A stretch of 11,916 nucleotides of DNA from a virus (lineage: Duplodnaviria > Heunggongvirae > Uroviricota > Caudoviricetes), in the IMG/VR virus record IMGVR_UViG_2547132488_000014, positions 1-11,916 of that record; one strand, given 5' to 3'. How positions within the stretch are numbered: position 1 is the stretch's first letter; the number at the start of each line of letters is the position of its first letter. The position numbers were made by a program, and so were the translations under genes. Below, in pieces: positions 1 through 10,715 of the stretch. The notes beneath the pieces were generated by a model that was not told where the DNA came from, did no database searches, and was given only the letters and a program-made list of their open reading frames with translations.

Positions 1-501
1 TTTTATTGTCTCAGGGTTGAGATTTTTTTCTTCAAATTGTTTAGCATCGCCAGATAAAAATTTATTAAACTTAGTTAGTTCGCCTGCAGGAACAGTTCTT
101 TGTATTTCTACATATACAACATTTCGCTCTGGGAAATTATCTCTGCGCCATTTCATCTGTTTAAATTTTGCAGTCCTGTTAATATTTTTATCTTTTGAAA
201 TAGGCTTGTCAGTCAATTCGAATCCAATTTCCCAATCACTCATTGAATCATCCCCATAAAATGATTTAGGGAAAAACTTGCTTGGCTTAACATTTTTATA
301 AGCGAGAGCTACAGCACCTAATATAGTCGACTTCCCTCCACCATTAGTCCCGATAAGAGCTGTAACTGGTGTTTTAAACTCCACAATTTCCTCATCAAAC
401 CCTCTGACATTTTTTAATGTGATACGTTTAACATATTGATTGAATTTATTATCTTGAACCTTACCCCTTTCTAACTTCAATTCTGCTGGAGATAATTTCA
501 T
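1..501 (-). CDS. P-loop NTPase with SMC/ABC-type Walker A motif; N-terminal 167 codons only, 3' end beyond the left window edge
   Basis: Manual minus-strand translation from ATG (499-501) is open to position 1: MKLSPAELKLERGKVQDNKFNQYVKRITLKNVRGFDEEIVEFKTPVTALIGTNGGGKSTILGAVALAYKN... Walker A GTNGGGKST. AAGGA Shine-Dalgarno about 6-8 nt upstream; in-frame stop immediately upstream (511-513). Absent from the ORF track because it has no stop inside the window. Visibly AT-rich compared with the tail genes. Confidence 0.65.
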   Translation of the reverse strand, partial: MKLSPAELKLERGKVQDNKFNQYVKRITLKNVRGFDEEIVEFKTPVTALIGTNGGGKSTILGAVALAYKNVKPSKFFPKSFYGDDSMSDWEIGFELTDKPISKDKNINRTAKFKQMKWRRDNFPERNVVYVEIQRTVPAGELTKFNKFLSGDAKQFEEKNLNPETIK

Positions 502-534
502 TTTAATTCCTTAGTTATAATCACAATAAACATC

Positions 535-579
535 AACTTCACACTAATAATTTCATTTAGAAATTATTAGTGTGAAGTT
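535..579. repeat. Perfect inverted repeat: 20-bp arms (535-554 and 560-579) around a 5-bp spacer
   Basis: AACTTCACACTAATAATTTC / attta / GAAATTATTAGTGTGAAGTT; arms are exact reverse complements. Lies 34-78 bp upstream of the ATPase start codon, so a candidate operator or insulating hairpin. Confidence 0.9.
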
Positions 580-596
580 TATAACCAAACAGACGT

Positions 597-668
597 TTCA
601 TCGCTTCATCGCTTCATCGCTTCATCGCTTCATCGCTTCATCGCTTCATCGCTTCATCGCTTCATCGC
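597..668. repeat. Tandem array of nine perfect copies of the octamer TTCATCGC (GCGATGAA on the - strand)
   Basis: Direct reading: units start at 597, 605, 613, 621, 629, 637, 645, 653, 661, with partial units on both flanks. Intergenic, 96-167 bp upstream of the ATPase start. No intervening spacers, so not a CRISPR array. Confidence 0.95.
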
Positions 669-887
669 TTACCAATATATGTCTTCTCGTTACATAAGAA
701 AAGCATCAGCTGAACGTAATGTCGGAAGCCCCATTGGAAAACCGTCACACCTAATAAATTCAGTACGTTATAAAACAGGGTTGTGATATTTTAAGCCAGT
801 ACCCATGCTAGTAAATATCTACTTAATACATTGATTTTTATGTGTTAAATAAAATCGTTGCCTACATATTGCCTCACTTCGACAGTA

Positions 888-907
888 AGCCCGCAACGTT
901 GCGGGCT
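888..907 (-). terminator. Palindromic GC-rich hairpin 5 nt downstream of the methyltransferase stop codon; putative terminator
   Basis: AGCCCGCAACGTTGCGGGCT is a perfect 20-bp palindrome. The U-tract is better in the + direction (TTTGTCTT) than in the - direction, so terminator function for the - strand operon is uncertain. Confidence 0.45.
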
Positions 908-912
908 TTGTC

Positions 913-1704
913 TTATGCTTCGATCGCCGTTTTGAGCCGTTGTGTTGCTACATCAAAATAATGATCACTGGTTTCTATACCAATAAATTTGCGTCCTGCT
1001 TTCAGCGCTGCAACACCCGTTGTTCCCGATCCCATAAAAGGATCAAGGACTGTTCCACCACTATTCGCAGTCCTGACCAGTTCTGCCATAAGTTCTTCTG
1101 GTTTTCCGGTCGGGTGCATTTTCTTTGATGGGATAACCGGGAACGTCATGCAGCCGTCGAACGGTCCCGAAGGCGATTTATCTAAATGGCCTTTACTGCC
1201 CCAGACGATGTATTCGCACTGATGCCGGAAATACCCCGTATGGGGTGTTCGTGACCCCCTTCCTTTGTTCCACGCAATGATGCCGCGCCATGTAAAGCCA
1301 CTGGCCTGAAACGCATCGGTTAAAGCTGGTAATTGTCGCCAGTCAGTAAATACCAGGGCATAACCGCCCGGCCTGACTGCGCGGTGTGCCTGTGCCATCC
1401 ATAATTGTGTCCAGTAAGCCCACGAACGGGCGTCCATGTTTTCACCCGCGAACCCATCAAAACGGTGAAGGCTCTCGCCGTTCAGATATTTTGCATGGCT
1501 GCCCTGGTTGGTGCGTCCGGCCTTGTGTGTCGCACCCGAACTGTAAGGCGGGTCAGTGATTAAGGCATCAATGCTTTCTGGCTCAATCAGCGGCAATATT
1601 TCCAGCGCATTCCCACGACAGAGCGTGGCATTGTCAGTCTGATAAACCTTAGTGTGTTCCGGTGTATGTGCTGGTTGGTGCTGGATTGCGATCCCCACGG
1701 TCAT
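913..1704 (-). CDS. DNA amino-methyltransferase, beta-class (N6-adenine or N4-cytosine), orphan: no cognate restriction gene in the window
   Basis: 263-aa ORF with motif IV DPPY (ITDPPYSS) N-terminal to motif I FxGxG (DPFMGSGTT), the circularly permuted order typical of beta-class N6A/N4C methyltransferases. ATG at 1702-1704. Confidence 0.88.
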   Translation of the reverse strand: MTVGIAIQHQPAHTPEHTKVYQTDNATLCRGNALEILPLIEPESIDALITDPPYSSGATHKAGRTNQGSHAKYLNGESLHRFDGFAGENMDARSWAYWTQLWMAQAHRAVRPGGYALVFTDWRQLPALTDAFQASGFTWRGIIAWNKGRGSRTPHTGYFRHQCEYIVWGSKGHLDKSPSGPFDGCMTFPVIPSKKMHPTGKPEELMAELVRTANSGGTVLDPFMGSGTTGVAALKAGRKFIGIETSDHYFDVATQRLKTAIEA

Positions 1705-1846
1705 AACTCCTCATGTGTGTGGGGTGCTCGATGGCTCTCGTTATCTGGTTAAGTGTTTTGCAGCGCGGACATTTTATTTCAATGTAGTGAAATGAGGCGC
1801 GGGCAAGTAGTTTGTTGCAATTTTTGCATCGTACATTTTGCGTCAT
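1649..1846 (-). CDS. com: Com-like zinc-finger protein (phage Mu Com family translational activator), overlapping the methyltransferase start
   Basis: Translation MTQNVRCKNCNKLLARASFHYIEIKCPRCKTLNQI... has a CxxC-N16-CxxC zinc ribbon closely resembling Mu Com as recalled (RCKNCNKLL...HIEI.CPRCK). ATG at 1844-1846 with AGAGG Shine-Dalgarno 8 nt upstream; an in-frame GTG at 1853-1855 is the alternative start. Stop at 1649-1651 is 55 nt inside the methyltransferase ORF, in a different frame. Confidence 0.7.
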   Translation of the reverse strand: MTQNVRCKNCNKLLARASFHYIEIKCPRCKTLNQITRAIEHPTHMRSYDRGDRNPAPTSTYTGTH

Positions 1847-1893
1847 TTGCGGCACCTCTTGTGTGGTTACTGCTGCCGATATGATAACAAATC

Positions 1894-1928
1894 GATCGTT
1901 TTTATCGATCGGATTTATTGCATCGATC
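1894..1928. promoter_or_regulatory. Cluster of three GATC (Dam) sites, each within ATCGATC, in the presumed promoter region of the com-methyltransferase operon
   Basis: GATC at 1894-1897, 1907-1910 and 1925-1928, embedded in aATCGATCg, tATCGATCg and cATCGATCt. Lies 50-80 bp upstream of the com start on the - strand. Resembles the three-GATC regulatory region upstream of the Mu mom promoter. Confidence 0.4.
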
Positions 1929-1976
1929 TGTTATGCCTATTGCTTATGTATGGTGCCCTCATTTGTGAGGGTAGCA

Positions 1977-2010
1977 AAAAGAAAACCCGCAGTTTTTACG
2001 CTGCGGGTTT
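1977..2010 (-). terminator. Rho-independent terminator downstream of the TM2-domain gene
   Basis: Stem 1985-1992 ACCCGCAG pairs with 2001-2008 CTGCGGGT, extendable by two A:T pairs. On the - strand it is followed by UCUUUUUG. Sits about 25 nt after the TM2 gene stop (2036). Confidence 0.7.
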
Positions 2011-2035
2011 GTTGTTCTGATTCGCCCACTAGGCA

Positions 2036-2332
2036 TTAGCCATATTTGCGGGCAAAGTCTTCATCAGAGGTGCATAGATAGATAAAAAACTCAATAAATG
2101 CCACGATTGCCGGAATGAATGTCCAGCAAAAAATAAGGTAAAGGAATCCTTGCCCCACTTTACCTAAATAAAATTTGTGTGCACCAAGACCACCTAAAAA
2201 GAAAGCCAGTAGTGCGGCTGTCATTCTGCTTTTTGAACTTGCTGTTCTTTGAGGTGCTCCACAATTGGGGCAGGATGTGGCATCTTTATGTATTTCCTTG
2301 CCGCATCCGCGACAAAATACCATTTCACTCAT
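2036..2332 (-). CDS. Small membrane protein with N-terminal zinc ribbon and TM2 domain
   Basis: 98-aa ORF: CRGCGKEIHKDATSCPNCGAP (two CxxC) followed by two hydrophobic helices and a GGLGAHKFYLG motif typical of TM2-domain proteins. AAAGGAAC Shine-Dalgarno upstream of ATG at 2330-2332. Confidence 0.8.
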   Translation of the reverse strand: MSEMVFCRGCGKEIHKDATSCPNCGAPQRTASSKSRMTAALLAFFLGGLGAHKFYLGKVGQGFLYLIFCWTFIPAIVAFIEFFIYLCTSDEDFARKYG

Positions 2333-2467
2333 AAAGAGTTCCTTTCAAATTTAAATAAGCGTTAAGCCCACCACTCTTACTGGTGGGCCTCAATTTAAAT
2401 TTGGGTGCCACTTCGACCATACCTTGGCAACCGATTGACGGGGGATTGCTCCCCCGTCGCGGTTTCC

Positions 2468-2608
2468 TTACTGCTTACACTGTAAGAACGCCGCAAACTC
2501 CGCTCCCCAGAAGCTCATCCGTATTTCACACAGCGAACCGTGTAGCATCCAGATGATGAGGATTACCGTCACGCAGAACGTGATGGCCGTAAGCGATTTT
2601 TGCGACAT
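2468..2608 (-). CDS. hok: Hok/Gef-family type I toxin (small membrane-active killer peptide), 46 aa
   Basis: Manual translation MSQKSLTAITFCVTVILIIWMLHGSLCEIRMSFWGAEFAAFLQCKQ: short polar N-terminus, one transmembrane helix, SLCEIR identical to plasmid R1 Hok, and AAFLxCK tail as in HokA. AAGGAG Shine-Dalgarno about 7 nt upstream of ATG (2606-2608); TAA stop at 2468-2470. Below the length cut-off of the ORF track. Confidence 0.7.
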   Translation of the reverse strand: MSQKSLTAITFCVTVILIIWMLHGSLCEIRMSFWGAEFAAFLQCKQ

Positions 2609-2799
2609 AGCGCTTGCTCCTTTGTTGGAGAGGCGCTAACCTATCACTTGCTTAAGGTAGATATGTTAGGGCCTCGGTTAAACAAAAATGTTTTCCGGGG
2701 CCTTTCCACATCTGGCCTTCGGGTATTCCCTCCGACCATCAGCCGAAAGGCACCCGCGCGTAATCTATCGCTTTTTTGTTACTCCGGCAATTCTGCCTG

Positions 2800-3060
2800 T
2801 TAATTCTGAGGTAAAGGCAAACTCATCTGATTGTTTCCCCTGTGTGAAGCTGGCAGTTCATGCCACGGGATACCTTCTGAAGAGTGAACGCCGGAGGCAT
2901 GTTTCGATGTGAATTTATGGAAAGCTTCCAGTGTTGAGAAGCATACGCCGCATTCCAGATTGTTACACTGGTAATACTTTTGCCGCACGGTGTTTGAATC
3001 ATTTTCCGGACGACTGGTGCGGATACGGGCAGATGCGCCACAAAGCGGACAACGGAACAT
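2800..3060 (-). CDS. ogr: Ogr/Delta-family zinc-finger transcriptional activator of phage late genes
   Basis: Begins MFRCPLCGASARIRTSR...YYQCNNLECGVCF, matching the N-terminus and Cys spacing of P2 Ogr as recalled (MFHCPLC...). Immediately downstream of gpD, as in P2. Confidence 0.85.
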   Translation of the reverse strand: MFRCPLCGASARIRTSRPENDSNTVRQKYYQCNNLECGVCFSTLEAFHKFTSKHASGVHSSEGIPWHELPASHRGNNQMSLPLPQN

Positions 3061-3102
3061 AGCGACCTCCCTTAACGTGGTGCTGCCGCTATTCTAAGTT
3101 GC

Positions 3103-4212
3103 TCACTCTGTTTCCGCTATCCATTCCGGGATTTTTGCCTCAAGCTCAAGCTGCGTGGTAAAGCCGCTGTTATCAATGGTGTGCTCGGCTTTTGCAATAA
3201 TCCAGTCCTGATTATCAATCTCGCTTTTAAATCCTGTTACCGTGCCATGCATTTCGGGGTAGAGTTCTGCACGTCCACGCGCCAGCGTGATGGAGAATGA
3301 TGCGGCTCCGCGTTGTAGCTGCTGCCACTTTGCCGCCGCTGCGCGTCTTGCTGCCTGCTCGTTCTGATAAGTCTTGCGTAACACAAACACATTGCCTTCC
3401 GCGCCTTCCATATAATCACCTTCACGGCTGCTGCTTTTCTCCTTTTTGGGCTTGGGCGGTTTGCGGCGTTTCACGCTGACTTTTTTCTTTTTCCCGTAAT
3501 TAAGATCAAGCCAGTAAGCGCGTACCCCCGTATACGCTTCGCGGTCAGCAATGCGGAACTGATGGCGATCGCCGCTGCTGCGTGTGATGGCAAACGATGG
3601 CAACGGCTGGCCCTGTGCGTTCACGCCGCCGCCGGGCATGATGAATAACAGATTACCGCTTTTTACCGTGGTGATTGCGCCCAGCATTTCCGCCATGCGC
3701 GTAAGGAAGGACATGTCGCTTTCTTCGGTCTGGTCGGCGTGGTCGATTTCGATATCCATCAGCATTTCGCTGATTTGCGGTTTCAGACCATACCGATGAG
3801 CGATGGCGGATACCACACGCTCAACGGTCACATCATGCCAGGACACCTCACGTTTAACGTTAAATTCATCCCGAAAATCTGCGCTTCTGGCTGAAACAGT
3901 CAGCCTGTCCGGCGGTCCTTCGTGAGCGATTTCATCAACAATGTAAGTGCCTTTTTCTGTCAGCGGTTCTCCCTTCCAGCCAATGAGAACCGTCAGGCGC
4001 GCGCCCCGTGGCGGTAGCTGCAACTGACCATCCGCATCATCCAGCATGATGGTGAGCTGGTCCGCCTCAAATCCCCGGTTGTCGGTCAGTGACAGGCTCA
4101 TCAGGCGCTCTGCCACGCCTGACAGCGTTTTACCCTCCGCGAGAATATCAAAATCCGGCATTTTCACGGGGTCTGTGCCCTGACTGAGCAATTGCATGGT
4201 GGTGTCGGTCAT
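3103..4212 (-). CDS. D: Tail protein gpD (P2 late control gene D family)
   Basis: Large ORF directly upstream of ogr on the same strand, about the size of P2 gpD. Start set at the internal ATG (4210-4212; MTDTTMQLL...), preceded by GGGAGGGAG. The ORF-track start at 4344 adds 44 residues with no ribosome-binding site. Confidence 0.85.
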   Translation of the reverse strand: MTDTTMQLLSQGTDPVKMPDFDILAEGKTLSGVAERLMSLSLTDNRGFEADQLTIMLDDADGQLQLPPRGARLTVLIGWKGEPLTEKGTYIVDEIAHEGPPDRLTVSARSADFRDEFNVKREVSWHDVTVERVVSAIAHRYGLKPQISEMLMDIEIDHADQTEESDMSFLTRMAEMLGAITTVKSGNLLFIMPGGGVNAQGQPLPSFAITRSSGDRHQFRIADREAYTGVRAYWLDLNYGKKKKVSVKRRKPPKPKKEKSSSREGDYMEGAEGNVFVLRKTYQNEQAARRAAAAKWQQLQRGAASFSITLARGRAELYPEMHGTVTGFKSEIDNQDWIIAKAEHTIDNSGFTTQLELEAKIPEWIAETE

Positions 4213-4369
4213 CTGCTCCCTCCCTGTGTGGCATGGTCGCATGTGCGTGCGGAGGGGGTTACTGCTTTTTGTTGTCGCCGTGGCGGGAGAATGGCGCAGG
4301 GGTGAGATTGCGCGCGTGGTGGGTGATGATTGTTGCCGAATCATTTAACGGATACAAGGGGCTGAAGCT

Positions 4370-5554
4370 ATGAGTGAAACTCGTTTTCATGGTGCCCGTG
4401 TTACGGAAAATACCGACCTGGTAACAGCGATTAACGATGTTGATTCCAGCGTTATCGGTATCGTGGCAACGGCGGATGATGCGGACGCGAAGCTGTTCCC
4501 GCTGAACAAGCCCACACTGCTGACCCGCGTCAATGACGTGCTGGGAAAATGCGGGACAACGGGGACGCTTTATCGTGCGCTTAAGGCCATCGCAGACCAG
4601 GTGAGCACAAAGGTGATCGTCGTTCGCGTGGCTGAACACAAAGAAGAAGACGGAAAAACGCAGGATCAACTGGTTATCGGTGGTTCTGAATCTGACGGCA
4701 GCTATACGGGGATGTATGCGCTGCTTGTTGCAGAGCAGGATGAAAGCATCGGATACCGTCCGCGTATTCTGGCCGCGCCGGAGCTGGACACGGAGGCGGT
4801 GACAAAATCCCTGTGCGTGATTGCGGGTAAACTGCGCGCGTTTGTGTATGCCTCATGTCACGGCTGTAACACGATGGCTGAGGCAATTACCTACCGCCAG
4901 AAATTCAACGAACGAGAGGTGATGCTCTTATGGCCGGACTTCATCGCCTACAACCCGAAAAGTGGCAAAAACGAAACGTTCCCCGCGCCTGCCTATGCGT
5001 GCGGCCTTCGTGCGTACATTGACCATGAACAGGGCTGGCACAAATCGCTGTCCAACGTTCCGGTTAAAAATGTGCTGGGGATGTCCGGGCATGTGTTCTG
5101 GTCGTTGCAGGCCGAAGACAGTGATGCCAACAGCCTCAACAACAAAGAAATCACGACCATTATTCGTCGCAACGGGTTCCGCTTCTGGGGCAACCGCACA
5201 CCGGAAACGAACGCCTACATCTTTGAGGTGTATACCCGAACCGCACAGGTGCTGGCTGATTCAATTGCGGAAGCGCAGTTTGAAACCATCGACAGTCCGC
5301 TGACGCCTGCGAACGTGAAGGATGTTATCAGCGCCATCAGGGCAAAACTGGATTCACTGGTGACTGCCGGGAAACTGATTGGGGCGTCGTGCTGGTATGA
5401 CGTGGTGGATAACGGCACCACGAATTTACGTCAGGGGCGCGTGCGTATTCGCTACAAATATACGCCAGTTCCCCCGCTGGAAGACATGGAGCTTTACCAG
5501 TCGTTTACTGATGAATTCTTTGGTCCCGCATTTGCGGTGCTGGGAGGTGCCTGA
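4370..5554 (+). CDS. FI: Contractile tail sheath protein (gpFI)
   Basis: 394 aa, first gene of a sheath-tube-chaperone-tape measure-gpU series; size and position as in the P2 FETUD operon. AAGGGG Shine-Dalgarno 9 nt upstream of the ATG. Confidence 0.88.
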   Translation: MSETRFHGARVTENTDLVTAINDVDSSVIGIVATADDADAKLFPLNKPTLLTRVNDVLGKCGTTGTLYRALKAIADQVSTKVIVVRVAEHKEEDGKTQDQLVIGGSESDGSYTGMYALLVAEQDESIGYRPRILAAPELDTEAVTKSLCVIAGKLRAFVYASCHGCNTMAEAITYRQKFNEREVMLLWPDFIAYNPKSGKNETFPAPAYACGLRAYIDHEQGWHKSLSNVPVKNVLGMSGHVFWSLQAEDSDANSLNNKEITTIIRRNGFRFWGNRTPETNAYIFEVYTRTAQVLADSIAEAQFETIDSPLTPANVKDVISAIRAKLDSLVTAGKLIGASCWYDVVDNGTTNLRQGRVRIRYKYTPVPPLEDMELYQSFTDEFFGPAFAVLGGA

Positions 5555-6066
5555 TGGCTGTACCAAAACATCTTCGCTTTTTTACGCTGTTTGTGGATGG
5601 TGAAAACGAAGTGGGTAAGGTGACGTCCGTCACCCTGCCTAAACTGACGCGCAAAACCGACAGCTACCGGGGTGGCGGCATGATGGGAGCGGTAAGTATT
5701 GATCTCGGCCTGGATGACTCCGCGCTTGATGCGAGCTTTGTCATGGGGGGCGCAGTTCGTGAGCTGTTCCTTAAGTATGGCGGCACGATTGACGGCACGC
5801 TGCTGCGTTTTGCGGGTGAATACTACACCGATGCAGAAAGCGACCTGTATGAAGTCGAAATGCGCGGACGTGTGACGGAAATTGATATGGGGGAAGCCAA
5901 ACAGGGCGAAGCCACATCACACACTTACGCCATTAAAAACACCTACTACAAGCTGAGTGTTAACGATCGCCCGTTGTGGGAGATTGACCTGCTGAACTTC
6001 ATCTACCGGAAGGACGGCAAGGACATTGTGCCTGACCGTATCCGTTCCGCGCTTGGGCTTGGCTGA
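5554..6066 (+). CDS. FII: Tail tube protein (gpFII)
   Basis: 170 aa directly after the sheath gene; its ATG overlaps the sheath stop (TGATG), indicating translational coupling; GGGAGGTG upstream. Confidence 0.85.
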   Translation: MAVPKHLRFFTLFVDGENEVGKVTSVTLPKLTRKTDSYRGGGMMGAVSIDLGLDDSALDASFVMGGAVRELFLKYGGTIDGTLLRFAGEYYTDAESDLYEVEMRGRVTEIDMGEAKQGEATSHTYAIKNTYYKLSVNDRPLWEIDLLNFIYRKDGKDIVPDRIRSALGLG

Positions 6067-6120
6067 TAAGTAATATGCAGGCGGCGCAGTGCGTCGCCTC
6101 TGACTGAAAGGAGTTTCCTG

Positions 6121-6486
6121 ATGAAAGAGACGAAAAACATCGATACCGAAAACACGGTAGTTACTGACACTGTGAAAGAAACCAGTGAGCGTGGCGTAAA
6201 ACTTACCCAACCCATTGAGCGAGGCGACGAAAAAATCACGTATGTGGAGATCACCGGGGCTATTGAGCAGGCTGGATCTCTGCGAGATTTGTCGCTGTCT
6301 GATGTGCTGAATCTGAAAGCGGAATCCATGTTTACGCTGCTGTCACGCGTGACATCACCGCGACTGGATGAAGTGACGATCAAAAAAATGGCATCCCGTG
6401 ACTTTATTCAGTTATGTGTGGTTGCCGTAAATTTTTTGAGCGGTGCGGACTCTGGCGGGAAGAACGAACAGGCGACGGAAGCCTGA
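6121..6486 (+). CDS. E: Tail assembly chaperone gpE (zero-frame product)
   Basis: 121-aa ORF between tube and tape measure genes; contains the slippery heptamer near its 3' end. Confidence 0.82.
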   Translation: MKETKNIDTENTVVTDTVKETSERGVKLTQPIERGDEKITYVEITGAIEQAGSLRDLSLSDVLNLKAESMFTLLSRVTSPRLDEVTIKKMASRDFIQLCVVAVNFLSGADSGGKNEQATEA

Positions 6487-6650
6487 TCACGGTTGTGTGC
6501 TTTGAGCACATAGAAGACTTTGTGGCAGATATTGCCGTTATTTTTAACTGGTCGCCCGCCGAAATCTTCATGATGACGCCCGGCGAAGTGGTTAGCTGGC
6601 GTGAGCGGGCGGCACTTCGCAGCGGGAGGGCAGACAATGAAGACTCTTGA
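6121..6650 (+). CDS. E': Tail assembly chaperone E+E', product of a programmed -1 ribosomal frameshift near 6432-6438
   Basis: The -1 frame ORF 6414-6650 overlaps the 3' end of E and ends at TGA 6648-6650, overlapping the tape measure start. The heptamer T TTT TTG sits in X XXY YYZ register in the E frame. Same architecture as P2 E/E'. Confidence 0.75.
6432..6438 (+). other. Slippery heptamer TTTTTTG (programmed -1 frameshift site for E/E')
   Basis: E-frame codons AAT TTT TTG place the heptamer in X XXY YYZ register; the -1 frame is open from this point to 6650. Confidence 0.75.
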
Positions 6651-9444
6651 TATCCGGGTCGCTTTCAGCGCCGTTGACAGGCTGACCCGGCCTGCCGAAA
6701 ACGCCCGCCGCCTGATGGGGCAGTTTGGTGACTCCATCCAGCGAACGCAGGGGGCGATCAAAAATCTCGAGCGTCAGGCGCGTTCATTTGAGCGCGCCCG
6801 CGACGCTGTCAGTAAAGCGGATGCGGGCATCGTGAAAGCACGACGCCAGCTTAACGCCCTTAATCAGTTACAACGCACGGGTACAGTGCTCAGCGAAAAA
6901 CAACAAAAGCTGATGCAGCAGTTAAGCACCCGGCTTGAACGCCTGAATGAATCGCGCACACGGGAAATTCAGAAAATGCGGGAACTTGGCGGAGAGCTGA
7001 AACGCCACGGCATTTCCCTGACAGGCAGCGATAACACCATCCAGCAGGCCATCAGACGCACCGAACAGTACAACAACCAGCTTGAACGCGAACGGCAGGC
7101 GCTTGCGCGTGTAACGCGGGCGCGTGAGCGGTATTCGCGCGCGCAGGAAACCGCGGGAAAACTGAAAACAGGTGGTGCGCTGGCAATTGGTGCGGCAGCG
7201 GCTGGCGGCTATGCTACCGGGCGTTTTTTGCAGCCTGCGATCGGGTTCGGGAAAGAGATGTCCCGCGTTCAGGCACTGACGCGAATCGACCAGAACAGCC
7301 CGCAGTTTAAGGCGCTGCGTGAGCAGGCGTTAAAACTTGGCTCTGAAACGCAGTTCACCGCAGGCGATGCCGCCAGTGGACAGGCATTTCTTGCAATGGC
7401 TGGCTTCACTCCACAGGCCATTCAGGCTGCGCTTCCCGGCGTGCTGAGCATGGCAACGGCTGGCGGTATGGATCTCGGCGAGACGGCAGATATTGGCTCA
7501 AATATCCTGACGCAGTTCGGCCTTTCTGCTGACCAGATGGACCGGGTCGGTGACACACTCACCGCAGCGTTTACCCGTACCAACACTGACCTTCGCGCAC
7601 TGGGCGAAACCATGAAATATGCAGGTCCGGTGGCGGGTAAGCTGGGAATATCGCTGGAGCAGGCCGCAGCGATGGCTGGCGTGCTGGCGAATATGGGCAT
7701 CAGAGGGAGTGATGCCGGGACGGCAATGCGTGCCAGCCTGGCTCGTCTGGCATCACCGCCAAAGGCGGCGGCAGAGGCGCTGAAAGAGCTTGGTGTGGCA
7801 GTTTCTGACGCGAACGGCAAAATGCGCCCGATGGAGGATGTGCTGGCCGACCTTTATAAAGCCACCCGCAAATACGGGGAAGTTGACCGGGTATCCTTCT
7901 TTAAGGACATCGCCGGGGAAGAGGCTTTCACATCGTTTATGGCGCTCGTTGATGCGGCAGGTGACGGTTCCTTACCCAAACTGAGAAAAGAACTTGAAGG
8001 CGCACGCGGTGAGGCTGAACGCACGGCAAAGGTTATGGCCAACAACCTTGATGGCGATCTGAAATCACTCGGCAGTGCATGGGAAGGGTTGCGCATCCGC
8101 ATTGCAGATCTGATTGACGGCCCGCTGCGTTCTGTCACGCAGTGGCTCACGCGGGTGGTATCAAGGGTGACGGCGCTGGCGCAGGCCCATCCGGCACTGA
8201 CGCGCCAGTTACTGATAGCAGGCGGTGCGTTGCTGGCAATGACTGCAACGATTGGCTCGTTGTCGCTGGTTATTGGCGTGCTTCACGGGAAACTGGCCAC
8301 GTTACGTCTTGGTTTTTCTCTCCTGACCGGATCAATGAATGTCGTCAGGGTGCTGCCAGCACTATGGGGAATGGTAACAGGTTCCATCTCGTTGCTGGGT
8401 GGCGCTATCGGGGCGCTGTTCAGTCCGGTCGGATTGATTGTTGCCGCGTTTGTGGCTGCGGCGGTTCTCATCTGGAAATACTGGGAACCCATCAAGGCGT
8501 TTTATGCCGGGGTGTTCAGTGGGATTATGGAACGGCTGGCTCCGTTGCGCGAAACCTTTGAACGGTTTGGTCCTGTTTTTGATGTCGTGCGCGATGGGAT
8601 TATTCAGCTCTTTAACTGGTTTAAATCGCTGCTGTCACCGATGGAGTCCAGCAAGGAAACGCTGGATAAATGTACCAGTGCTGGCGAGATATTCGGTAAC
8701 GTTCTTGGTGGCGCGCTACAGCTTGTTCTGACGCCTGCAAAAATGCTGCTGGATACGCTGGCGTGGATACTTGAAAAACTCGGTGTGCTTCCGGATGAAG
8801 CGGAAAGGGCGAGAAAGAAAATCGAAGACGCACAGCGTGCGGCCATTCTTCAGGACAAGGTTGCCTTGCTTCAGGGGGACCTGGCGAAAATCAATCCGCC
8901 GAAGCCTGTGGAAAATGGCAATGGCACCGGAGGTGATAAACCCAAAGACAATAAACCGCTCACAGACAGCAACACCGGAACGCTACGCAGGCTCAGCAAA
9001 ATTGCTGATAACACAGGTAAGCTGGTTGATGAGACGAAAAAACGCATTGGCCCCGGCGATATTGTCTTTAAGAACCTGCCCCGCGCACTTGCTGTTCGTG
9101 GGGAGTGGCAGGAGCGGAAGATTGCGCAGGTCAGTAAGCCTGCCCCCGCAATTAATATCCCCCCCGTGGTCCCGGCTCCGCTGCCTCCGGCGCTGGTCCC
9201 TGTTGTTGCGGCCAGCTCCCGCCCGGTGGCGGAGGCCATACGATCGCCAGTGGCATCAGTTCCTGTAACTTCCCGTAACCGGGAGCCTGTTGCCTCCGGA
9301 TTTGGTGGTGAAATTCATGTTCATCTGCATAACGTTGTTACGCAGAATCCCCGCGAACTGGCGAAACTGGTCGGTGAAATGGTCAGGGCAGAAATGGAAC
9401 GGCGCGCCCGTGCCGGGCGTGGCAGTTTTTACGATAAAGATTGA
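6637..9444 (+). CDS. T: Tail tape measure protein (gpT)
   Basis: Largest ORF in the window. N-terminal coiled-coil-like region, central Gly/Ala-rich hydrophobic segments, Pro/Ala-rich C-terminal region. Start set at ATG 6637 (MKTLDIRV...), preceded by GGGAGGG, rather than the GTG at 6601. Confidence 0.9.
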   Translation: MKTLDIRVAFSAVDRLTRPAENARRLMGQFGDSIQRTQGAIKNLERQARSFERARDAVSKADAGIVKARRQLNALNQLQRTGTVLSEKQQKLMQQLSTRLERLNESRTREIQKMRELGGELKRHGISLTGSDNTIQQAIRRTEQYNNQLERERQALARVTRARERYSRAQETAGKLKTGGALAIGAAAAGGYATGRFLQPAIGFGKEMSRVQALTRIDQNSPQFKALREQALKLGSETQFTAGDAASGQAFLAMAGFTPQAIQAALPGVLSMATAGGMDLGETADIGSNILTQFGLSADQMDRVGDTLTAAFTRTNTDLRALGETMKYAGPVAGKLGISLEQAAAMAGVLANMGIRGSDAGTAMRASLARLASPPKAAAEALKELGVAVSDANGKMRPMEDVLADLYKATRKYGEVDRVSFFKDIAGEEAFTSFMALVDAAGDGSLPKLRKELEGARGEAERTAKVMANNLDGDLKSLGSAWEGLRIRIADLIDGPLRSVTQWLTRVVSRVTALAQAHPALTRQLLIAGGALLAMTATIGSLSLVIGVLHGKLATLRLGFSLLTGSMNVVRVLPALWGMVTGSISLLGGAIGALFSPVGLIVAAFVAAAVLIWKYWEPIKAFYAGVFSGIMERLAPLRETFERFGPVFDVVRDGIIQLFNWFKSLLSPMESSKETLDKCTSAGEIFGNVLGGALQLVLTPAKMLLDTLAWILEKLGVLPDEAERARKKIEDAQRAAILQDKVALLQGDLAKINPPKPVENGNGTGGDKPKDNKPLTDSNTGTLRRLSKIADNTGKLVDETKKRIGPGDIVFKNLPRALAVRGEWQERKIAQVSKPAPAINIPPVVPAPLPPALVPVVAASSRPVAEAIRSPVASVPVTSRNREPVASGFGGEIHVHLHNVVTQNPRELAKLVGEMVRAEMERRARAGRGSFYDKD

Positions 9445-9450
9445 GGAGTC

Positions 9451-9945
9451 ATGGCCATGATGATGATCTACGGCATGTTTGTTTTTGAGCTGCGCACGTT
9501 GCCGCATCAGCAGTTACAGCAAAACAAAAGCTGGCGGCATGTGAAAAATGAACGCGTTAACCGTTCAGCAAGCTGGCAGTATATCGGGGCAGGCGATGAT
9601 CGCATCGTTCTTTCTGGTGTGCTTTATCCTGAAATTACAGGTGGCGAAGTGTCGCTTTCGTTGCTGACCACACAGGCATATACAGGACGCCCCTGGCCTC
9701 TGATTGATGGTGTCGGGCAGATTTACGGCATGTATGTCCTGACCGGAACGAATACGACCCATTCCGAGTTTGATCGCTACGGTAAGGCGAAAAAGATAGA
9801 ATTTTCACTGACCCTTGAACGCTGTGATGAGGATTTGCGGGGGCGCCTGCAATCCTCATCGTTCAGCGATATGCTGTCCGGCTTCAAAGATAAGGTGACA
9901 GCATCCATTAACAACGCGGCCAGTTCAGTTAAAGGGCTGTTCTGA
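9451..9945 (+). CDS. U: Tail protein gpU
   Basis: 164-aa ORF directly after the tape measure gene, GAGGAG upstream. Start is ambiguous among ATGs at 9451, 9457, 9460 and 9463 (MAMMMIYGMFVFELRT...). Confidence 0.78.
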   Translation: MAMMMIYGMFVFELRTLPHQQLQQNKSWRHVKNERVNRSASWQYIGAGDDRIVLSGVLYPEITGGEVSLSLLTTQAYTGRPWPLIDGVGQIYGMYVLTGTNTTHSEFDRYGKAKKIEFSLTLERCDEDLRGRLQSSSFSDMLSGFKDKVTASINNAASSVKGLF

Positions 9946-9946
9946 T

Positions 9947-10159
9947 TTGGAAGAGCAGAGGCAGCAGGCGGAAAATGAAAAGCAAAGCCTGCTACAGCTC
10001 GTCAGGGATAAAACCCAGCTATGGGACTCACAGCTACGGCTGGGCATCATTTCCGACGAGAATAAACAAAAATTAACCGAGTGGATGCTCTATGCGCAGA
10101 AGGTCGAATCCACAGACACCTCCAGCCTGCCAGTAACGTTTCCAGAACAACCAGAATGA
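9947..10159 (+). pseudogene. Truncated tail fiber assembly protein (Tfa) C-terminal fragment, no ATG start
   Basis: The 70-residue reading frame (..QQAENEKQSLLQLVRDKTQLWDSQLRLGIISDENKQKLTEWMLYAQKVESTDTSSLPVTFPEQPE) aligns with the C-terminus of the intact Tfa on the other strand (..[63 protein letters not shown]). Frame is open only from 9899, has no ATG (first candidate is TTG at 9947, 1 nt after the gpU stop), and lacks the N-terminal two thirds. Confidence 0.6.
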
Positions 10160-10162
10160 AAC

Positions 10163-10189
10163 AAGGCCCGCTATCGGGCCTTAATTTTT
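10163..10189. terminator. Bidirectional Rho-independent terminator between the convergent Tfa fragment and Tfa
   Basis: Perfect 8-bp stem AAGGCCCG / CGGGCCTT with loop CTAT, followed on the + strand by AATTTTTATT. Lies 3 nt after the + strand stop and 5 nt after the Tfa stop on the - strand. Confidence 0.7.
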
Positions 10190-10715
10190 ATTCAGGCTTT
10201 TGTGGCCATTCAGGATTTGCCGTATCCACACGGCTGACCAGAACGCTGTAGCGTTCCCATGCTTCCAGTCGTGTGCGTTCCTCGTCTGTTGCCATATTCA
10301 GCCTGACAGCGCGTTCCAGCGGCTGGATGACTGATTCAGCTTCGGAAATCAACGCGGCCTTTTGTGATTCGGCCTGTTGTTGCTGTTCGTCAGCCGTATA
10401 AATCCGCTTAATCACAGCACCATCCTTAAACATCCATTTACCTGAGTCATCAGCACGTCGGTTGGCGGTAATATCAGGAACCTCGACAACGCTAAAACCT
10501 TCAGGGTTAAGCGTGGAGGCATCTTTGGTGATGGCGACAATAATATTATTTTCGTCGTATACAATCTTTATGGTGTCGTCCTGAAAGTTATTTACTTCCT
10601 CATACCAGTTTTTACCGTCTTCTGTATATAACCAGATAACATCAAAATTCTTTGTTAGCTGACATTGCTCTTTTGTTTTTGGATTTCCTGACTTAATATT
10701 TTTTAAATGCTGCAT
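10188..10715 (-). CDS. G: Tail fiber assembly protein (Tfa; P2 gpG / Mu U family)
   Basis: 175 aa with the conserved Tfa C-terminus (...[27 protein letters not shown]). ATG 3 nt after the tail fiber stop (TAA ATT ATG), AGGTG upstream. Confidence 0.88.

Follow-up and report, generated by a model that had tools for sequence, protein, structure and literature searches.

The block downstream of ogr in a P88-like prophage of E. coli as a probable variable cargo slot beside attR

In phage P2, ogr is the last of the late genes, about 100 bp separate it from the core of attP, and int follows, with the int-C-cox genes lying across the attachment site. What does it mean when a P2-like element instead carries a block of accessory genes after ogr? 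We examined this question in a stretch of 11,916 bp, hereafter the window, which is a whole draft contig (APZX01000030.1, GCA_000357685.2) whose left end falls within a HEC-04 gene and whose right end falls within a tail-fibre gene. The original prediction proposed that the block takes the place of attP and int, and that the element either carries an accessory island or has lost its integration module. Very probably, positions 502-2800 form the cargo arm next to attR in a temperate P88-like phage (Xuanwuvirus, P2 family) that has integrated into E. coli, and the cassettes of this arm are separate morons. The ogr-adjacent block is real and would be ordinary, corresponding to the normal, highly variable cargo slot of P88-like E. 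coli phages.

Gene content downstream of ogr

Domain matches, which are too strong to be due to chance, confirmed the gene order first read from the sequence: ogr is followed on the minus strand by hok, a zinc-ribbon/TM2 gene, com overlapping a methyltransferase gene, and an AT-rich ATPase gene. The genes of the arm and its conserved flank are the following:

3103-4212, minus strand: gpD tail/baseplate hub gene (369-aa call; Pfam Phage_GPD), conserved flank of the arm
2800-3060, minus strand: ogr, late-gene activator (Pfam Ogr_Delta, E 5e-14)
2598-2755, minus strand: candidate hok mRNA leader/sok antisense region (Rfam RF01794)
2468-2608, minus strand: hok, 46-aa Hok/Gef membrane toxin (Pfam HOK_GEF, PF01848)
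2036-2332, minus strand: membrane protein of 98 aa with an N-terminal zinc ribbon and a TM2 domain of two TM helices (Pfam TM2, E 5e-19)
1649-1846 (alternative end 1855), minus strand: com, Mu-type zinc-finger translational activator (Pfam Zn_ribbon_Com, PF10122, E 1e-11)
913-1704, minus strand: orphan beta-class (DPPY) DNA amino-methyltransferase (Pfam N6_N4_Mtase, PF01555, E 3e-33)
1-501, minus strand: first 167 codons of a HEC-04-type ABC-ATPase/TOPRIM defence nuclease, running off the contig end

Pfam domains for the P2-type late tail genes FI, FII, E/E', T, U and D were found in the window together with ogr, which is the last core late gene ahead of the cargo arm, as it is in P2. All late genes within the window are open. 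Positions 2403-9948 are collinear with phage P88 at 96.6% nucleotide identity, and identity to the Xuanwuvirus phages P88, Chuche and P884B11 reaches 95-98% over D-ogr-hok and the tail operon. Unlike in P2, the FI-U operon runs opposite to D-ogr and H-G, as in the layout of P88 and Xuanwuvirus; the att site is the raiA terminator; and the short P2 interval between ogr and the attP core contrasts with about 4.4 kb of cargo here. The GC content is 33-35% across positions 1-800, against 50-58% in the phage genes.

The hok product matches PF01848 (E 4e-7; 30.1 bits for a gathering cut-off of 22) and PHROG 251, 'MokW-like host killing' (E 2.5e-23), and the locus is 82-85% identical in nucleotides to hok loci of Stx-converting phages. 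As in the hok/sok systems of plasmid R1 and Stx phages, the Hok/Gef toxin ORF is accompanied by a leader matching the Rfam hok/sok model. Unlike in those systems, the leader scores below the gathering threshold of RF01794 (47.6 bits, E 1e-8, for a gathering score of 59), and no mok frame overlapping hok was found: the single ORF upstream (2644-2739, 31 aa) terminates 36 nt short of the hok AUG. On these two counts the module is incomplete by the textbook definition of hok/sok. The adjacent TM2 protein matches PHROG families of unknown function; its gene is absent from Chuche, P88 and minimal arms, and a single coliphage homologue was found (57% identical).

The integration module in complete relatives

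As first noted, the window contains no tRNA (ARAGORN), no integrase domain among its ORFs and no att site. Since the window is an entire, short contig of a fragmented assembly, these absences are uninformative about the element itself. Capsid and replication genes, att repeats and int, which it had been suggested to look for outside of the window, are all present in complete genomes that share the arm. The first 4.4 kb of the window are identical in seven complete E. coli genomes, which hold a complete-looking prophage of about 37.5 kb. In these genomes the attachment sites are 27-bp direct repeats (26/27 identical), one at the raiA terminator and one beside pheL, and the site reconstructed without the prophage is found uninterrupted in 5273 of 5426 genomes. 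Going left from window position 1, the attR core is reached after 1.6 kb, while int lies about 37 kb from the arm, beside pheL at the far end of the prophage. The repeats enclose the gene set int-C-cox-A...Q-P-O-N-M-L...H-G, and every identical-arm complete genome inspected has full early, head, lysis and tail gene sets in addition to att repeats and int. The right half of the window is only 97.9% identical to these proxies. For the source strain itself, int and att would, judging from the complete relatives, lie beyond the contig end.

An integrated P2-type prophage has ogr at its attR end and int at its attL end, so adjacency of the two was never to be expected. The free or annotated phages Chuche, P884B11 and P88 are all ordered D-ogr-hok-[cargo]-int, and in Chuche (D-ogr-hok-com-MTase-int) int comes directly after the methyltransferase gene (MTase).

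These observations bear on the reading of the element as a degraded, domesticated P2-like remnant in which attP and int were lost and replaced by the block. Besides the lack of int and att in the window, some features do recall erosion. Relative to P88, a deletion has removed the tail-fibre invertase and a portion of the invertible segment, leaving a 70-codon tail-fibre-assembly fragment at 9947-10159, and a methyltransferase pseudogene fragment adjoins attR in the identical loci. Given the tail-fibre deletion, some prophage decay is possible. However, the open late genes, the complete gene sets with att repeats and int in all inspected identical-arm genomes, the nature of the window as a short contig and the P2 map itself make the loss of the integration module very unlikely, and the complete relatives and Chuche support neither the proposal that the block substitutes for attP and int nor that of a lost module.

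Slot contents and cassette joints

The proposal of an accessory island after ogr, on the other hand, was borne out by a census of 5426 complete E. coli genomes. An ogr-hok arm is present in 1179 of them; TM2-com-MTase occurs in 82 of these (7%), the HEC-04 ATPase module in 17 (1.4%), and ogr-hok, TM2-com-MTase and HEC-04 are found all together in 7-8 genomes. When arms were evenly sampled, five out of five stopped right after hok. Other slot contents were seen in P884B11 (five other genes), 500465-2, ST69 (hok-HEC-04 without TM2 or com) and minimal arms, and strain A2 combines a different phage body with the same int and HEC-04 arm. The TM2 cassette and the HEC-04 module were found in this slot in no sequenced phage of the collection searched. 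The arm thus has conserved flanks and differing cargo in relatives, as accessory hotspots do.

Could these genes instead be a conserved, syntenic core of the P88 lineage? The original prediction had itself raised this case, with attP and int located elsewhere, and part of it stands: attP and int are elsewhere, and hok is near-core in the lineage, the ogr-hok pair being found in the 1179 genomes and in all of the P88-like phage records that were inspected. The order of TM2, com and MTase is also invariant wherever they are present. The case fails for the other genes. Only hok is near-core; the remaining genes occur at the low frequencies given above and in none of the five sampled arms, other phages hold unrelated genes in the slot, and the HEC-04 module has a GC content some 20 points below that of the phage. 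We consider it very unlikely that the block as a whole is core, and the content past hok is variable cargo.

Accessory and defence hotspots with conserved flanks and swappable cargo, including anti-phage genes, have been described in P2-like phages (Rousset 2022, PMC9122126; Egorov & Atkinson 2024, bioRxiv 10.1101/2024.10.15.618418; NAR 2026, PMC13586616). A cargo hotspot between a P2 tail gene and the repressor has already been reported, and this arm is a further case of it. The slot, between ogr/hok and attP, is distinct from both classical P2 hotspots, gpA-portal (with old/tin) and Z/fun (between G and FI). None of PMC9122126, 10.1101/2024.10.15.618418 and PMC13586616 describes the hok anchor, the terminator joints or this cargo set; the word 'ogr' is absent from the main text of the two hotspot papers searched for it, as are 'hok', 'methyltransferase' and 'HEC' from PMC13586616.

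The joints between cassettes coincide with hairpins, none of which is assigned to a strand:

2436-2459: hairpin at the 3' end of the hok transcript
1983-2010: bidirectional terminator T1, a conserved joint directly after hok in minimal arms
887-908: terminator hairpin T2, ending the com-MTase cassette and marking its joint with the HEC-04 module

The arm shared across P88-like phages begins at 2403, where all P88-like phage matches start. T1 comes right after the 3' end of hok in P88, EPEC, AZ146, 23CRST047 and ST69, and the hairpins at 2436-2459 and 1983-2010 lie side by side in each of the cargo-free arms that were compared. The TM2 cassette (2018-2402) is an insertion that separates the hok 3' end from T1. 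On the other side, similarity to Chuche and other arms ends at 884-935, around T2, and the EPEC arm, which is free of cargo, also has a T2-like copy. The block consists of independent cassettes stacked one after another and set apart by terminators.

The com-methyltransferase and HEC-04 cassettes

Com is 60% identical to Mu Com and matches the PHROG family 'gpCom control of modification'. Its gene overlaps that of the methyltransferase by 56 nt, and the latter likely starts at AUG 1704 or at the in-frame GUG 1698. The enzyme matches PADLOC MTase_II (E 6e-63), and the nearest solved structures are DpnA and CcrM. No restriction endonuclease gene adjoins it, its neighbours being com and, in a small number of genomes, HEC-04; in the majority it lies directly against attR. 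We therefore regard it as an orphan phage methyltransferase. Chuche has this com-MTase cassette too, at 96% identity. The following elements precede the methyltransferase gene:

1881-1928, minus strand: com promoter region, with promoter-like hexamers (1881-1908) and three GATC sites
1727-1734, minus strand: putative Com target motif CCAUCGAG, from the alignment with Mu com-mom
1693-1724, minus strand: hairpin CCCCAC...GUGGGG, from RNA folding, enclosing the methyltransferase SD (GAGGAG), AUG 1704 and GUG 1698

The GATC sites (1894, 1907 and 1925; spacing of 13 and 18 bp) align with the trio of the Mu mom promoter (18 and 14 bp) and fit the published Dam/OxyR control of Pmom; one relative (L026) has lost two of the three. 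The Com target and the hairpin fit, at the level of sequence, the published model in which Com recognizes CC(N)2-3GAG next to a translation-inhibition structure (TIS; PMC6483171), of which the hairpin at 1693-1724 would be the counterpart. As in Mu com-mom, com overlaps the modification gene, three GATC sites at similar spacing lie upstream, and a CC(N)3GAG Com site is followed by an SD/start-codon hairpin with a GUG within its 3' stem. The cassette appears in this way to retain the control elements of Mu mom, namely the three GATC sites, the Com RNA site and the start-codon hairpin.

There are also differences with Mu. The carrier is a P2-like rather than a transposable phage, and the part of the Mu promoter that carries the C-activator site has no counterpart in the com promoter in the alignment with Mu com-mom; no Ogr-type box was found. 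The enzyme is a beta-class SAM methyltransferase (PF01555) and not Mom (PF25680), which Mu and Apirhabdus carry. Elsewhere in bacteria, Com pairs with Mom or with D12 methyltransferases, the latter in Azonexus and Acinetobacter loci. The Mu-like prophage methyltransferases Hia5, Hin1523 and Nma1821, which have a Com homologue upstream and stand in the place of mom, perform m6A modification of broad or no specificity and act in anti-restriction (Drozdz 2012, PMC3299994). Those enzymes are Dam-related (D12 class), unlike the DpnA/CcrM-like beta-class enzyme of the window.

The AT-rich foreign module carrying HEC-04 covers positions 1 to about 883. The full-length copy in an identical locus (L001:19032-20501) matches the PADLOC HEC-04 model PDLC04149 over residues 2-488 of 489 (E 1.8e-203), as well as Pfam AAA_15/AAA_21; its TOPRIM domain was not detected by Pfam. 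It has a Walker A motif GTNGGGKS (K57), E316 and D372/D374, which correspond to K62, E319 and D375/D377 of the assayed protein by motif and near-constant offset rather than by residue-level alignment. HEC-04 was first found embedded in methylase-containing Hma systems; a representative defends alone against phage, and its Walker A and TOPRIM mutants lose defence (Payne et al., bioRxiv 10.1101/2024.01.29.577857). The protein encoded here is expected to be an anti-phage nuclease by analogy with that representative, to which the known activity belongs. Like P2 Old and the OLD family, HEC-04 combines an ABC ATPase and a C-terminal TOPRIM in one protein, and its gene, like P2 old, is carried by a prophage as a putative defence gene. 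It resembles P2 Old and plasmid IbfA only distantly (about 28% identity), and unlike old, the gene lies in the ogr-att arm and not at the old/tin position, with a variable 8-bp repeat upstream.

The adjacency of a methyltransferase and a nuclease on the same strand, the presence of a second methyltransferase fragment flanking HEC-04 and the discovery of HEC-04 within Hma systems could suggest that the block is a single functional system, in which, for example, the methyltransferase shields the host from the nuclease, and TM2 and hok are accessory effectors. Characterizing the cargo as one unit had indeed been proposed. Yet com-MTase is found without HEC-04 in about 75 genomes and in Chuche, while in ST69 and A2 HEC-04 is accompanied only by a methyltransferase pseudogene fragment. 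Each part has its own terminator, the published HEC-04 defends alone, and Com-type control predicts that the methyltransferase is silent in the lysogen, precisely where a protective methylase would be needed. We found nothing to show that the block works as a unit, and a single system seems very unlikely.

We favor instead a stack of separate morons. In this lineage D and ogr lead into a near-universal hok/sok-type toxin module, then a variable slot, attP and int, and integration brings ogr and the cargo to attR and int to the other end, attL. Here the slot holds three stacked cassettes, each with its own terminator: the TM2 protein, the com-MTase operon and HEC-04. For the cargo genes we infer the following expression and function. 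Transcription of com-MTase may be gated through the three GATC sites by Dam/OxyR-type control, and the SD/start-codon hairpin would prevent translation of the methyltransferase as long as Com has not bound the neighbouring CC(N)3GAG hairpin. Production of the enzyme would then be confined to the lytic cycle, where it would methylate the DNA of progeny and so guard it against restriction by the host. HEC-04, probably a recent acquisition, would be active in the lysogen, with expression from there, and protect the host from other phages. Individual cassettes would be gained and lost by recombination at the conserved terminator joints, rather than forming one system.

Two repeats, neither assigned to a strand, lie upstream of HEC-04:

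535-579: perfect inverted repeat (arms of 20 bp, loop of 5 bp) that overlaps promoter-like hexamers a short way upstream of the start of HEC-04
597-668: 8-bp tandem repeat TTCATCGC in nine copies, 96-167 bp upstream of the HEC-04 start codon

The inverted repeat is conserved in all HEC-04 loci compared and is a candidate operator or leader hairpin. The tandem repeat was recovered by TRF with a period of 8, 9.2 copies and a 100% match, and its copy number differs between strains (7, 8, 8, 9, 9, 9, 9, 11, 11 and 13 in ten loci).

Location of the cargo arm relative to the attachment site

The original prediction described a run of genes downstream of ogr and on its strand, comprising hok, a zinc-ribbon/TM2 gene, com, a DNA methyltransferase and an AT-rich ATPase. 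We recovered all of them in that place (hereafter the arm), on the minus strand, and GC content falls to 33-35% over 1-800, in line with the AT-rich ATPase end described there.

Features of the window
1-501, minus strand: ABC-type ATPase, first 167 codons
887-908: terminator-like hairpin T2
913-1704, minus strand: beta-class DNA methyltransferase (MTase), overlapping com by 56 nt
1649-1846, minus strand: com
1983-2010: terminator-like hairpin T1
2036-2332, minus strand: zinc ribbon plus TM2 (two transmembrane helices), 98 aa
2436-2459: terminator-like hairpin at the hok 3' end
2468-2608, minus strand: hok (HOK_GEF, above the gathering score)
2800-3060, minus strand: ogr, P2-type
3103-4212, minus strand: gpD, P2-type
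4370-5554, plus strand: sheath FI, P2-type tail gene
plus strand: tube FII, E/E' and U, P2-type tail genes
6637-9444, plus strand: tape measure, P2-type tail gene
right end of the window: two tail-fibre genes, the fibre ORF continuing past the contig end

As also predicted, the window carries neither a tRNA nor an integrase domain, which had left two readings: an accessory island after ogr, or a degraded element without its integration module. The window is one complete contig (APZX01000030.1) of the draft assembly GCA_000357685.2, and the absence of int and att is therefore uninformative about the element itself. Its first 4.4 kb are 100% identical to several complete E. coli chromosomes, and it is in these loci that boundaries, att repeats and int could be sought. 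In ETEC1749, the ATPase gene is completed in the sequence leftward from the window; a 300-bp fragment of a methyltransferase pseudogene comes next, and raiA follows. Local alignment revealed a 27-bp repeat, CAACGCGCCTTCGGGCGCGTTTTTTGT, which is the raiA terminator and lies 1.6 kb left of window position 1 in the identical loci. A second copy (26/27) is found about 37.5 kb away, adjoining a phage integrase beside pheL. The interval between the copies contains int, C, cox, A, portal, terminase, capsid, lysis, baseplate and tail genes, a P2-type set that looks complete and that includes the capsid and replication genes to be looked for outside the window. The reconstructed empty site, raiA-core-pheL, is unbroken in 5273 of 5426 complete E. 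coli genomes. A tRNA-type att was rejected, the window being devoid of tRNA and the phage using the raiA terminator; sister prophages are flanked by leuZ, ihfA or serS.

In P2, ogr is followed by a terminator, the attP core 100 bp further on, and then int. Those records of related phages that continue beyond hok place the arm within this order: Chuche reads D-ogr-hok-com-MTase-int-C-cox, P884B11 reads D-ogr-hok-five ORFs-int, and the circular P88 record has hok and one small ORF directly ahead of int at the record start. It is established P2 biology that int comes to lie at the opposite prophage end after integration. The block occupies the stretch that separates attP from the last late gene. 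It is thus an accessory island, as one reading held, inserted before attP and not in place of attP and int; the apparent loss of the integration module is very probably an artefact of the short contig, as att repeats and int are present in the identical complete-genome loci. When int is missing from a draft contig, prophage decay is not the conclusion to draw.

Variability and joints of the arm

Of the same 5426 complete E. coli genomes, 1179 carry the ogr-hok unit (2403-3060) at a coverage of at least 80%, 82 carry the TM2-com-MTase segment (913-2332), 17 the ATPase module, and 7-8 the full set together. Five arms sampled at even steps of the ranking all end 0.3-1 kb past hok, next to leuZ (three arms), ihfA or serS. 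Other arms vary in content: that of E2855 reads hok-TM2-com-MTase-attR, that of ST69 reads hok-ATPase-MTase fragment-attR, and unrelated genes occupy the slot in 500465-2 and P884B11. From these counts and variants it follows that hok is near-core for the lineage and that all genes distal to it are cargo, so that the alternative of a block made of conserved core genes holds for hok and fails for everything beyond. In the strain A2 prophage the structural genes differ while the integrase protein and the ATPase-fragment-attR arm are the same, which argues that att-proximal cargo travels with the attP/int module.

The A2 locus (NZ_CP028772.1, 1300024-1337000) is a prophage of the P2 family whose head and tail genes are quite different and whose ogr adjoins the portal gene. 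It shares the early region and the HEC-04/attR arm with the window-type phage, their integrases are identical, and a YafO-type toxin adjoins its HEC-04 gene. The two types of phage appear to swap modules at one shared att site.

The joints between cassettes can be placed by comparison with cargo-free arms. There, the hok 3' end directly adjoins T1, and the TM2 cassette (2018-2402) consequently lies between these two elements; the cargo-free EPEC arm also has a T2-like copy. The com-MTase cassette (909-1965) is bounded by T1 and T2, and the AT-rich module starts left of 884. Past the HEC-04 module of the identical loci, 28 bp of the hok 3' hairpin region recur, joined to a second copy of the MTase 3' end that spans 260 bp at 90% identity (18485-18808 in locus L001), adjoining attR and 1.2-1.5 kb left of window position 1. 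This fusion looks like a recombination scar and indicates that alternative arms exchanged sequence and that the HEC-04 module entered in this way.

Two hotspots are classical in P2, gpA-portal (old/tin) and Z/fun, and minor defence hotspots adjoining int/att have already been counted (Rousset 2022, PMC9122126; Egorov and Atkinson 2024, bioRxiv 10.1101/2024.10.15.618418; NAR 2026, PMC13586616). Every gene family in the arm is likewise known, and current concepts are left unchanged by our findings. What is new is only the combination and the anatomy: the hok anchor, the terminator joints, a Mu-type chassis driving a beta-class MTase in a P2-like phage, and a variable repeat upstream of HEC-04. 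The arm gives a concrete anatomy for the lesser-known third cargo hotspot of P2-family phages, with an ogr-hok anchor, conserved terminator hairpins as joints, and cassettes stacked between these joints and attP, whose cargo moves in part with the int/attP module among phages of different structural genes. Three things become testable: whether a beta-class methyltransferase of a P2-like phage is under Mu-type Com control, what the small TM2 membrane protein does, and the repeat-length polymorphism that precedes a defence gene of a validated type.

Other cargo positions were seen in relatives. Some carry an extra gene between gpD and ogr, an alpha/beta hydrolase or hypotheticals (L015, 7010-7768; L016, 6807-7472; L010, 5849-6871), making this gap a second small cargo slot, which is empty in the window (42 bp, 3061-3102). 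In P88-like phages, the interval from replication gene A to the portal gene, which is the classical P2 old/tin hotspot, encodes a plasmid partition pair of ParM/ParR type (L002, 18126-19401; L003, 8856-10131). A few arm matches fall on records labelled plasmid (18 places).

Genes and control elements of the cargo

Window Com is 60% identical to Mu Com, and the sequence between the promoter and the start of the MTase can be aligned with Mu com-mom, including three GATC sites at 1894, 1907 and 1925 (spacing 13 and 18 bp) that match the three of Mu; the Mu promoter segment with the C site is missing from the window cassette. The motif CCAUCGAG is consistent with the SELEX-defined Com site CC(N)2-3GAG. 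Beyond it, a hairpin CCCCAC...GUGGGG (1693-1724) holds GAGGAG, the AUG at 1704 and an in-frame GUG at 1698; its Mu counterpart, CCCAC-GGAG-...-GUGGG, has the GUG start within the stem. OxyR cannot repress in Mu once Dam has methylated the GATC sites. The inhibitory hairpin of Mu is melted by Com (PMC6483171). The enzyme differs, being a PF01555 methyltransferase in the window and Mom in Mu. Its nearest solved structures are DpnA and CcrM, and no restriction gene accompanies it. Com homologues elsewhere stand upstream of Mom (Apirhabdus) or of D12 Dam-like MTases (Azonexus, Acinetobacter), and Com with non-specific m6A MTases is documented in Mu-like prophages (PMC3299994). By analogy, the window MTase would be a late-expressed, Com-gated orphan that shields progeny DNA from restriction.

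The search for an Ogr-type box (TGT-N12-ACA) upstream of com or TM2 gave two chance-level matches, neither at a promoter. M.EcoGII, the silent prophage MTase with non-specific adenine activity, was considered as the identity of the enzyme and discarded, as it has 349 aa and no com described, and DpnA and CcrM are nearest here. Our collection scan for Com relatives yielded six loci, too few and too diverged for a hairpin covariation test. In one contig labelled Vagococcus sp. WN89Y (L026, 2870-3934), a com-MTase cassette with 92% identity to its enterobacterial counterpart stands in a Firmicute assembly, probably by contamination or mislabelling; recombination between GATCGAT repeats has removed two of its three GATC sites.

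The TM2 protein matches PHROG families of unknown function and no PADLOC family, and one coliphage homologue (57% identical) was found. The literature search found no role for TM2-domain proteins in prophages; a membrane moron, for example a superinfection-exclusion factor, would be our guess. The hok locus is 82-85% identical to Stx-phage hok loci, and its leader matches the Rfam hok/sok model under the gathering score (E 1e-8). A mok-like ORF (2644-2739, minus strand) stops 36 nt ahead of the hok start without overlap, so the usual mok-hok translational coupling may not apply here. The locus is conserved in more than 1000 genomes despite this arrangement. It likely acts as a type I toxin-antitoxin system, stabilising the prophage or aborting infection.

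In the identical loci, the full-length ATPase (489 aa) matches PADLOC HEC-04 end to end (E 1.8e-203) and also AAA_15 and AAA_21; its PDB relatives, the OLD and PtuA ATPases, match at the N terminus only. HEC-04 combines an ABC ATPase and a TOPRIM nuclease in one fusion protein and defends E. coli against phages that include T4 and T5; defence is lost in Walker A (K62A) and TOPRIM (E319, D375, D377) mutants (Payne et al., bioRxiv 10.1101/2024.01.29.577857). K57, E316 and D372/D374 are present in the protein studied here. MTase and HEC-04 are distributed independently, which argues against a restriction-modification-like pair. Close kinship to plasmid IbfA was rejected (only about 28% identity), as was an Hma embedding of HEC-04, the flanking MTase pieces matching generic type II MTase models and not Hma among the best 25 of 71 PADLOC families.

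Upstream of HEC-04 (intergenic region 502-912), nine copies of the 8-bp unit TTCATCGC at 597-668 immediately precede a perfect inverted repeat with 20-bp arms (535-579), which lies between them and the HEC-04 start. This palindrome overlaps promoter-like hexamers, symmetric on both strands, and is a candidate operator or leader hairpin. Ten loci, otherwise 98.4-100% identical across the HEC-04 module, have 7, 8, 8, 9, 9, 9, 9, 11, 11 and 13 copies (the variable repeat is carried at window 597-668, L001 20597-20668, L007, L008 and L019-L023). All length differences are whole repeat units, a pattern typical of slipped-strand mispairing. That such slippage switches HEC-04 as a phase-variable contingency locus seems to us unlikely. 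If true, such switching would be out of the ordinary both for E. coli and for the defence cargo of phages, and its neighbour would be a control chassis of the Mu Dam/OxyR/Com type that has been moved into a P2-like phage, where it drives a different MTase class.

Phage identity and tail region

Window 2403-9948 is 96.6% identical to Escherichia phage P88 (Xuanwuvirus, Peduoviridae). In P2, FI-FII-E-T-U, D-ogr and the fibre genes all run in one direction, whereas in the window FI-FII-E-T-U is opposite to D-ogr and the fibre genes (3103-10159), as in the Xuanwuvirus/P88 layout, where D-ogr and H-G run opposite to the FI-U operon. No record among complete E. coli genomes spans the entire window at >98% identity, and the window is therefore a mosaic variant.

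D and FI diverge from a single 150-bp intergenic region (4213-4369). At 9947-10159 (plus strand), a second tail-fibre assembly gene survives as a 70-codon C-terminal piece pointing towards the intact gene at 10188-10715 (minus strand). Compared with P88, about 2 kb are absent from the tail-fibre region, including a DNA invertase and an alternative fibre tip, which implies that the invertible tail-fibre switch is deleted and the host range locked. The gpD frame is open over 413 codons (3103-4344). On identical sequence, RefSeq has in its place only a 266-aa 'VgrG/Pvc8 family' protein and a spurious antisense pseudogene; the gene is intact: another gene caller gives it 369 aa, and its length in related phages is about 366-369 aa.
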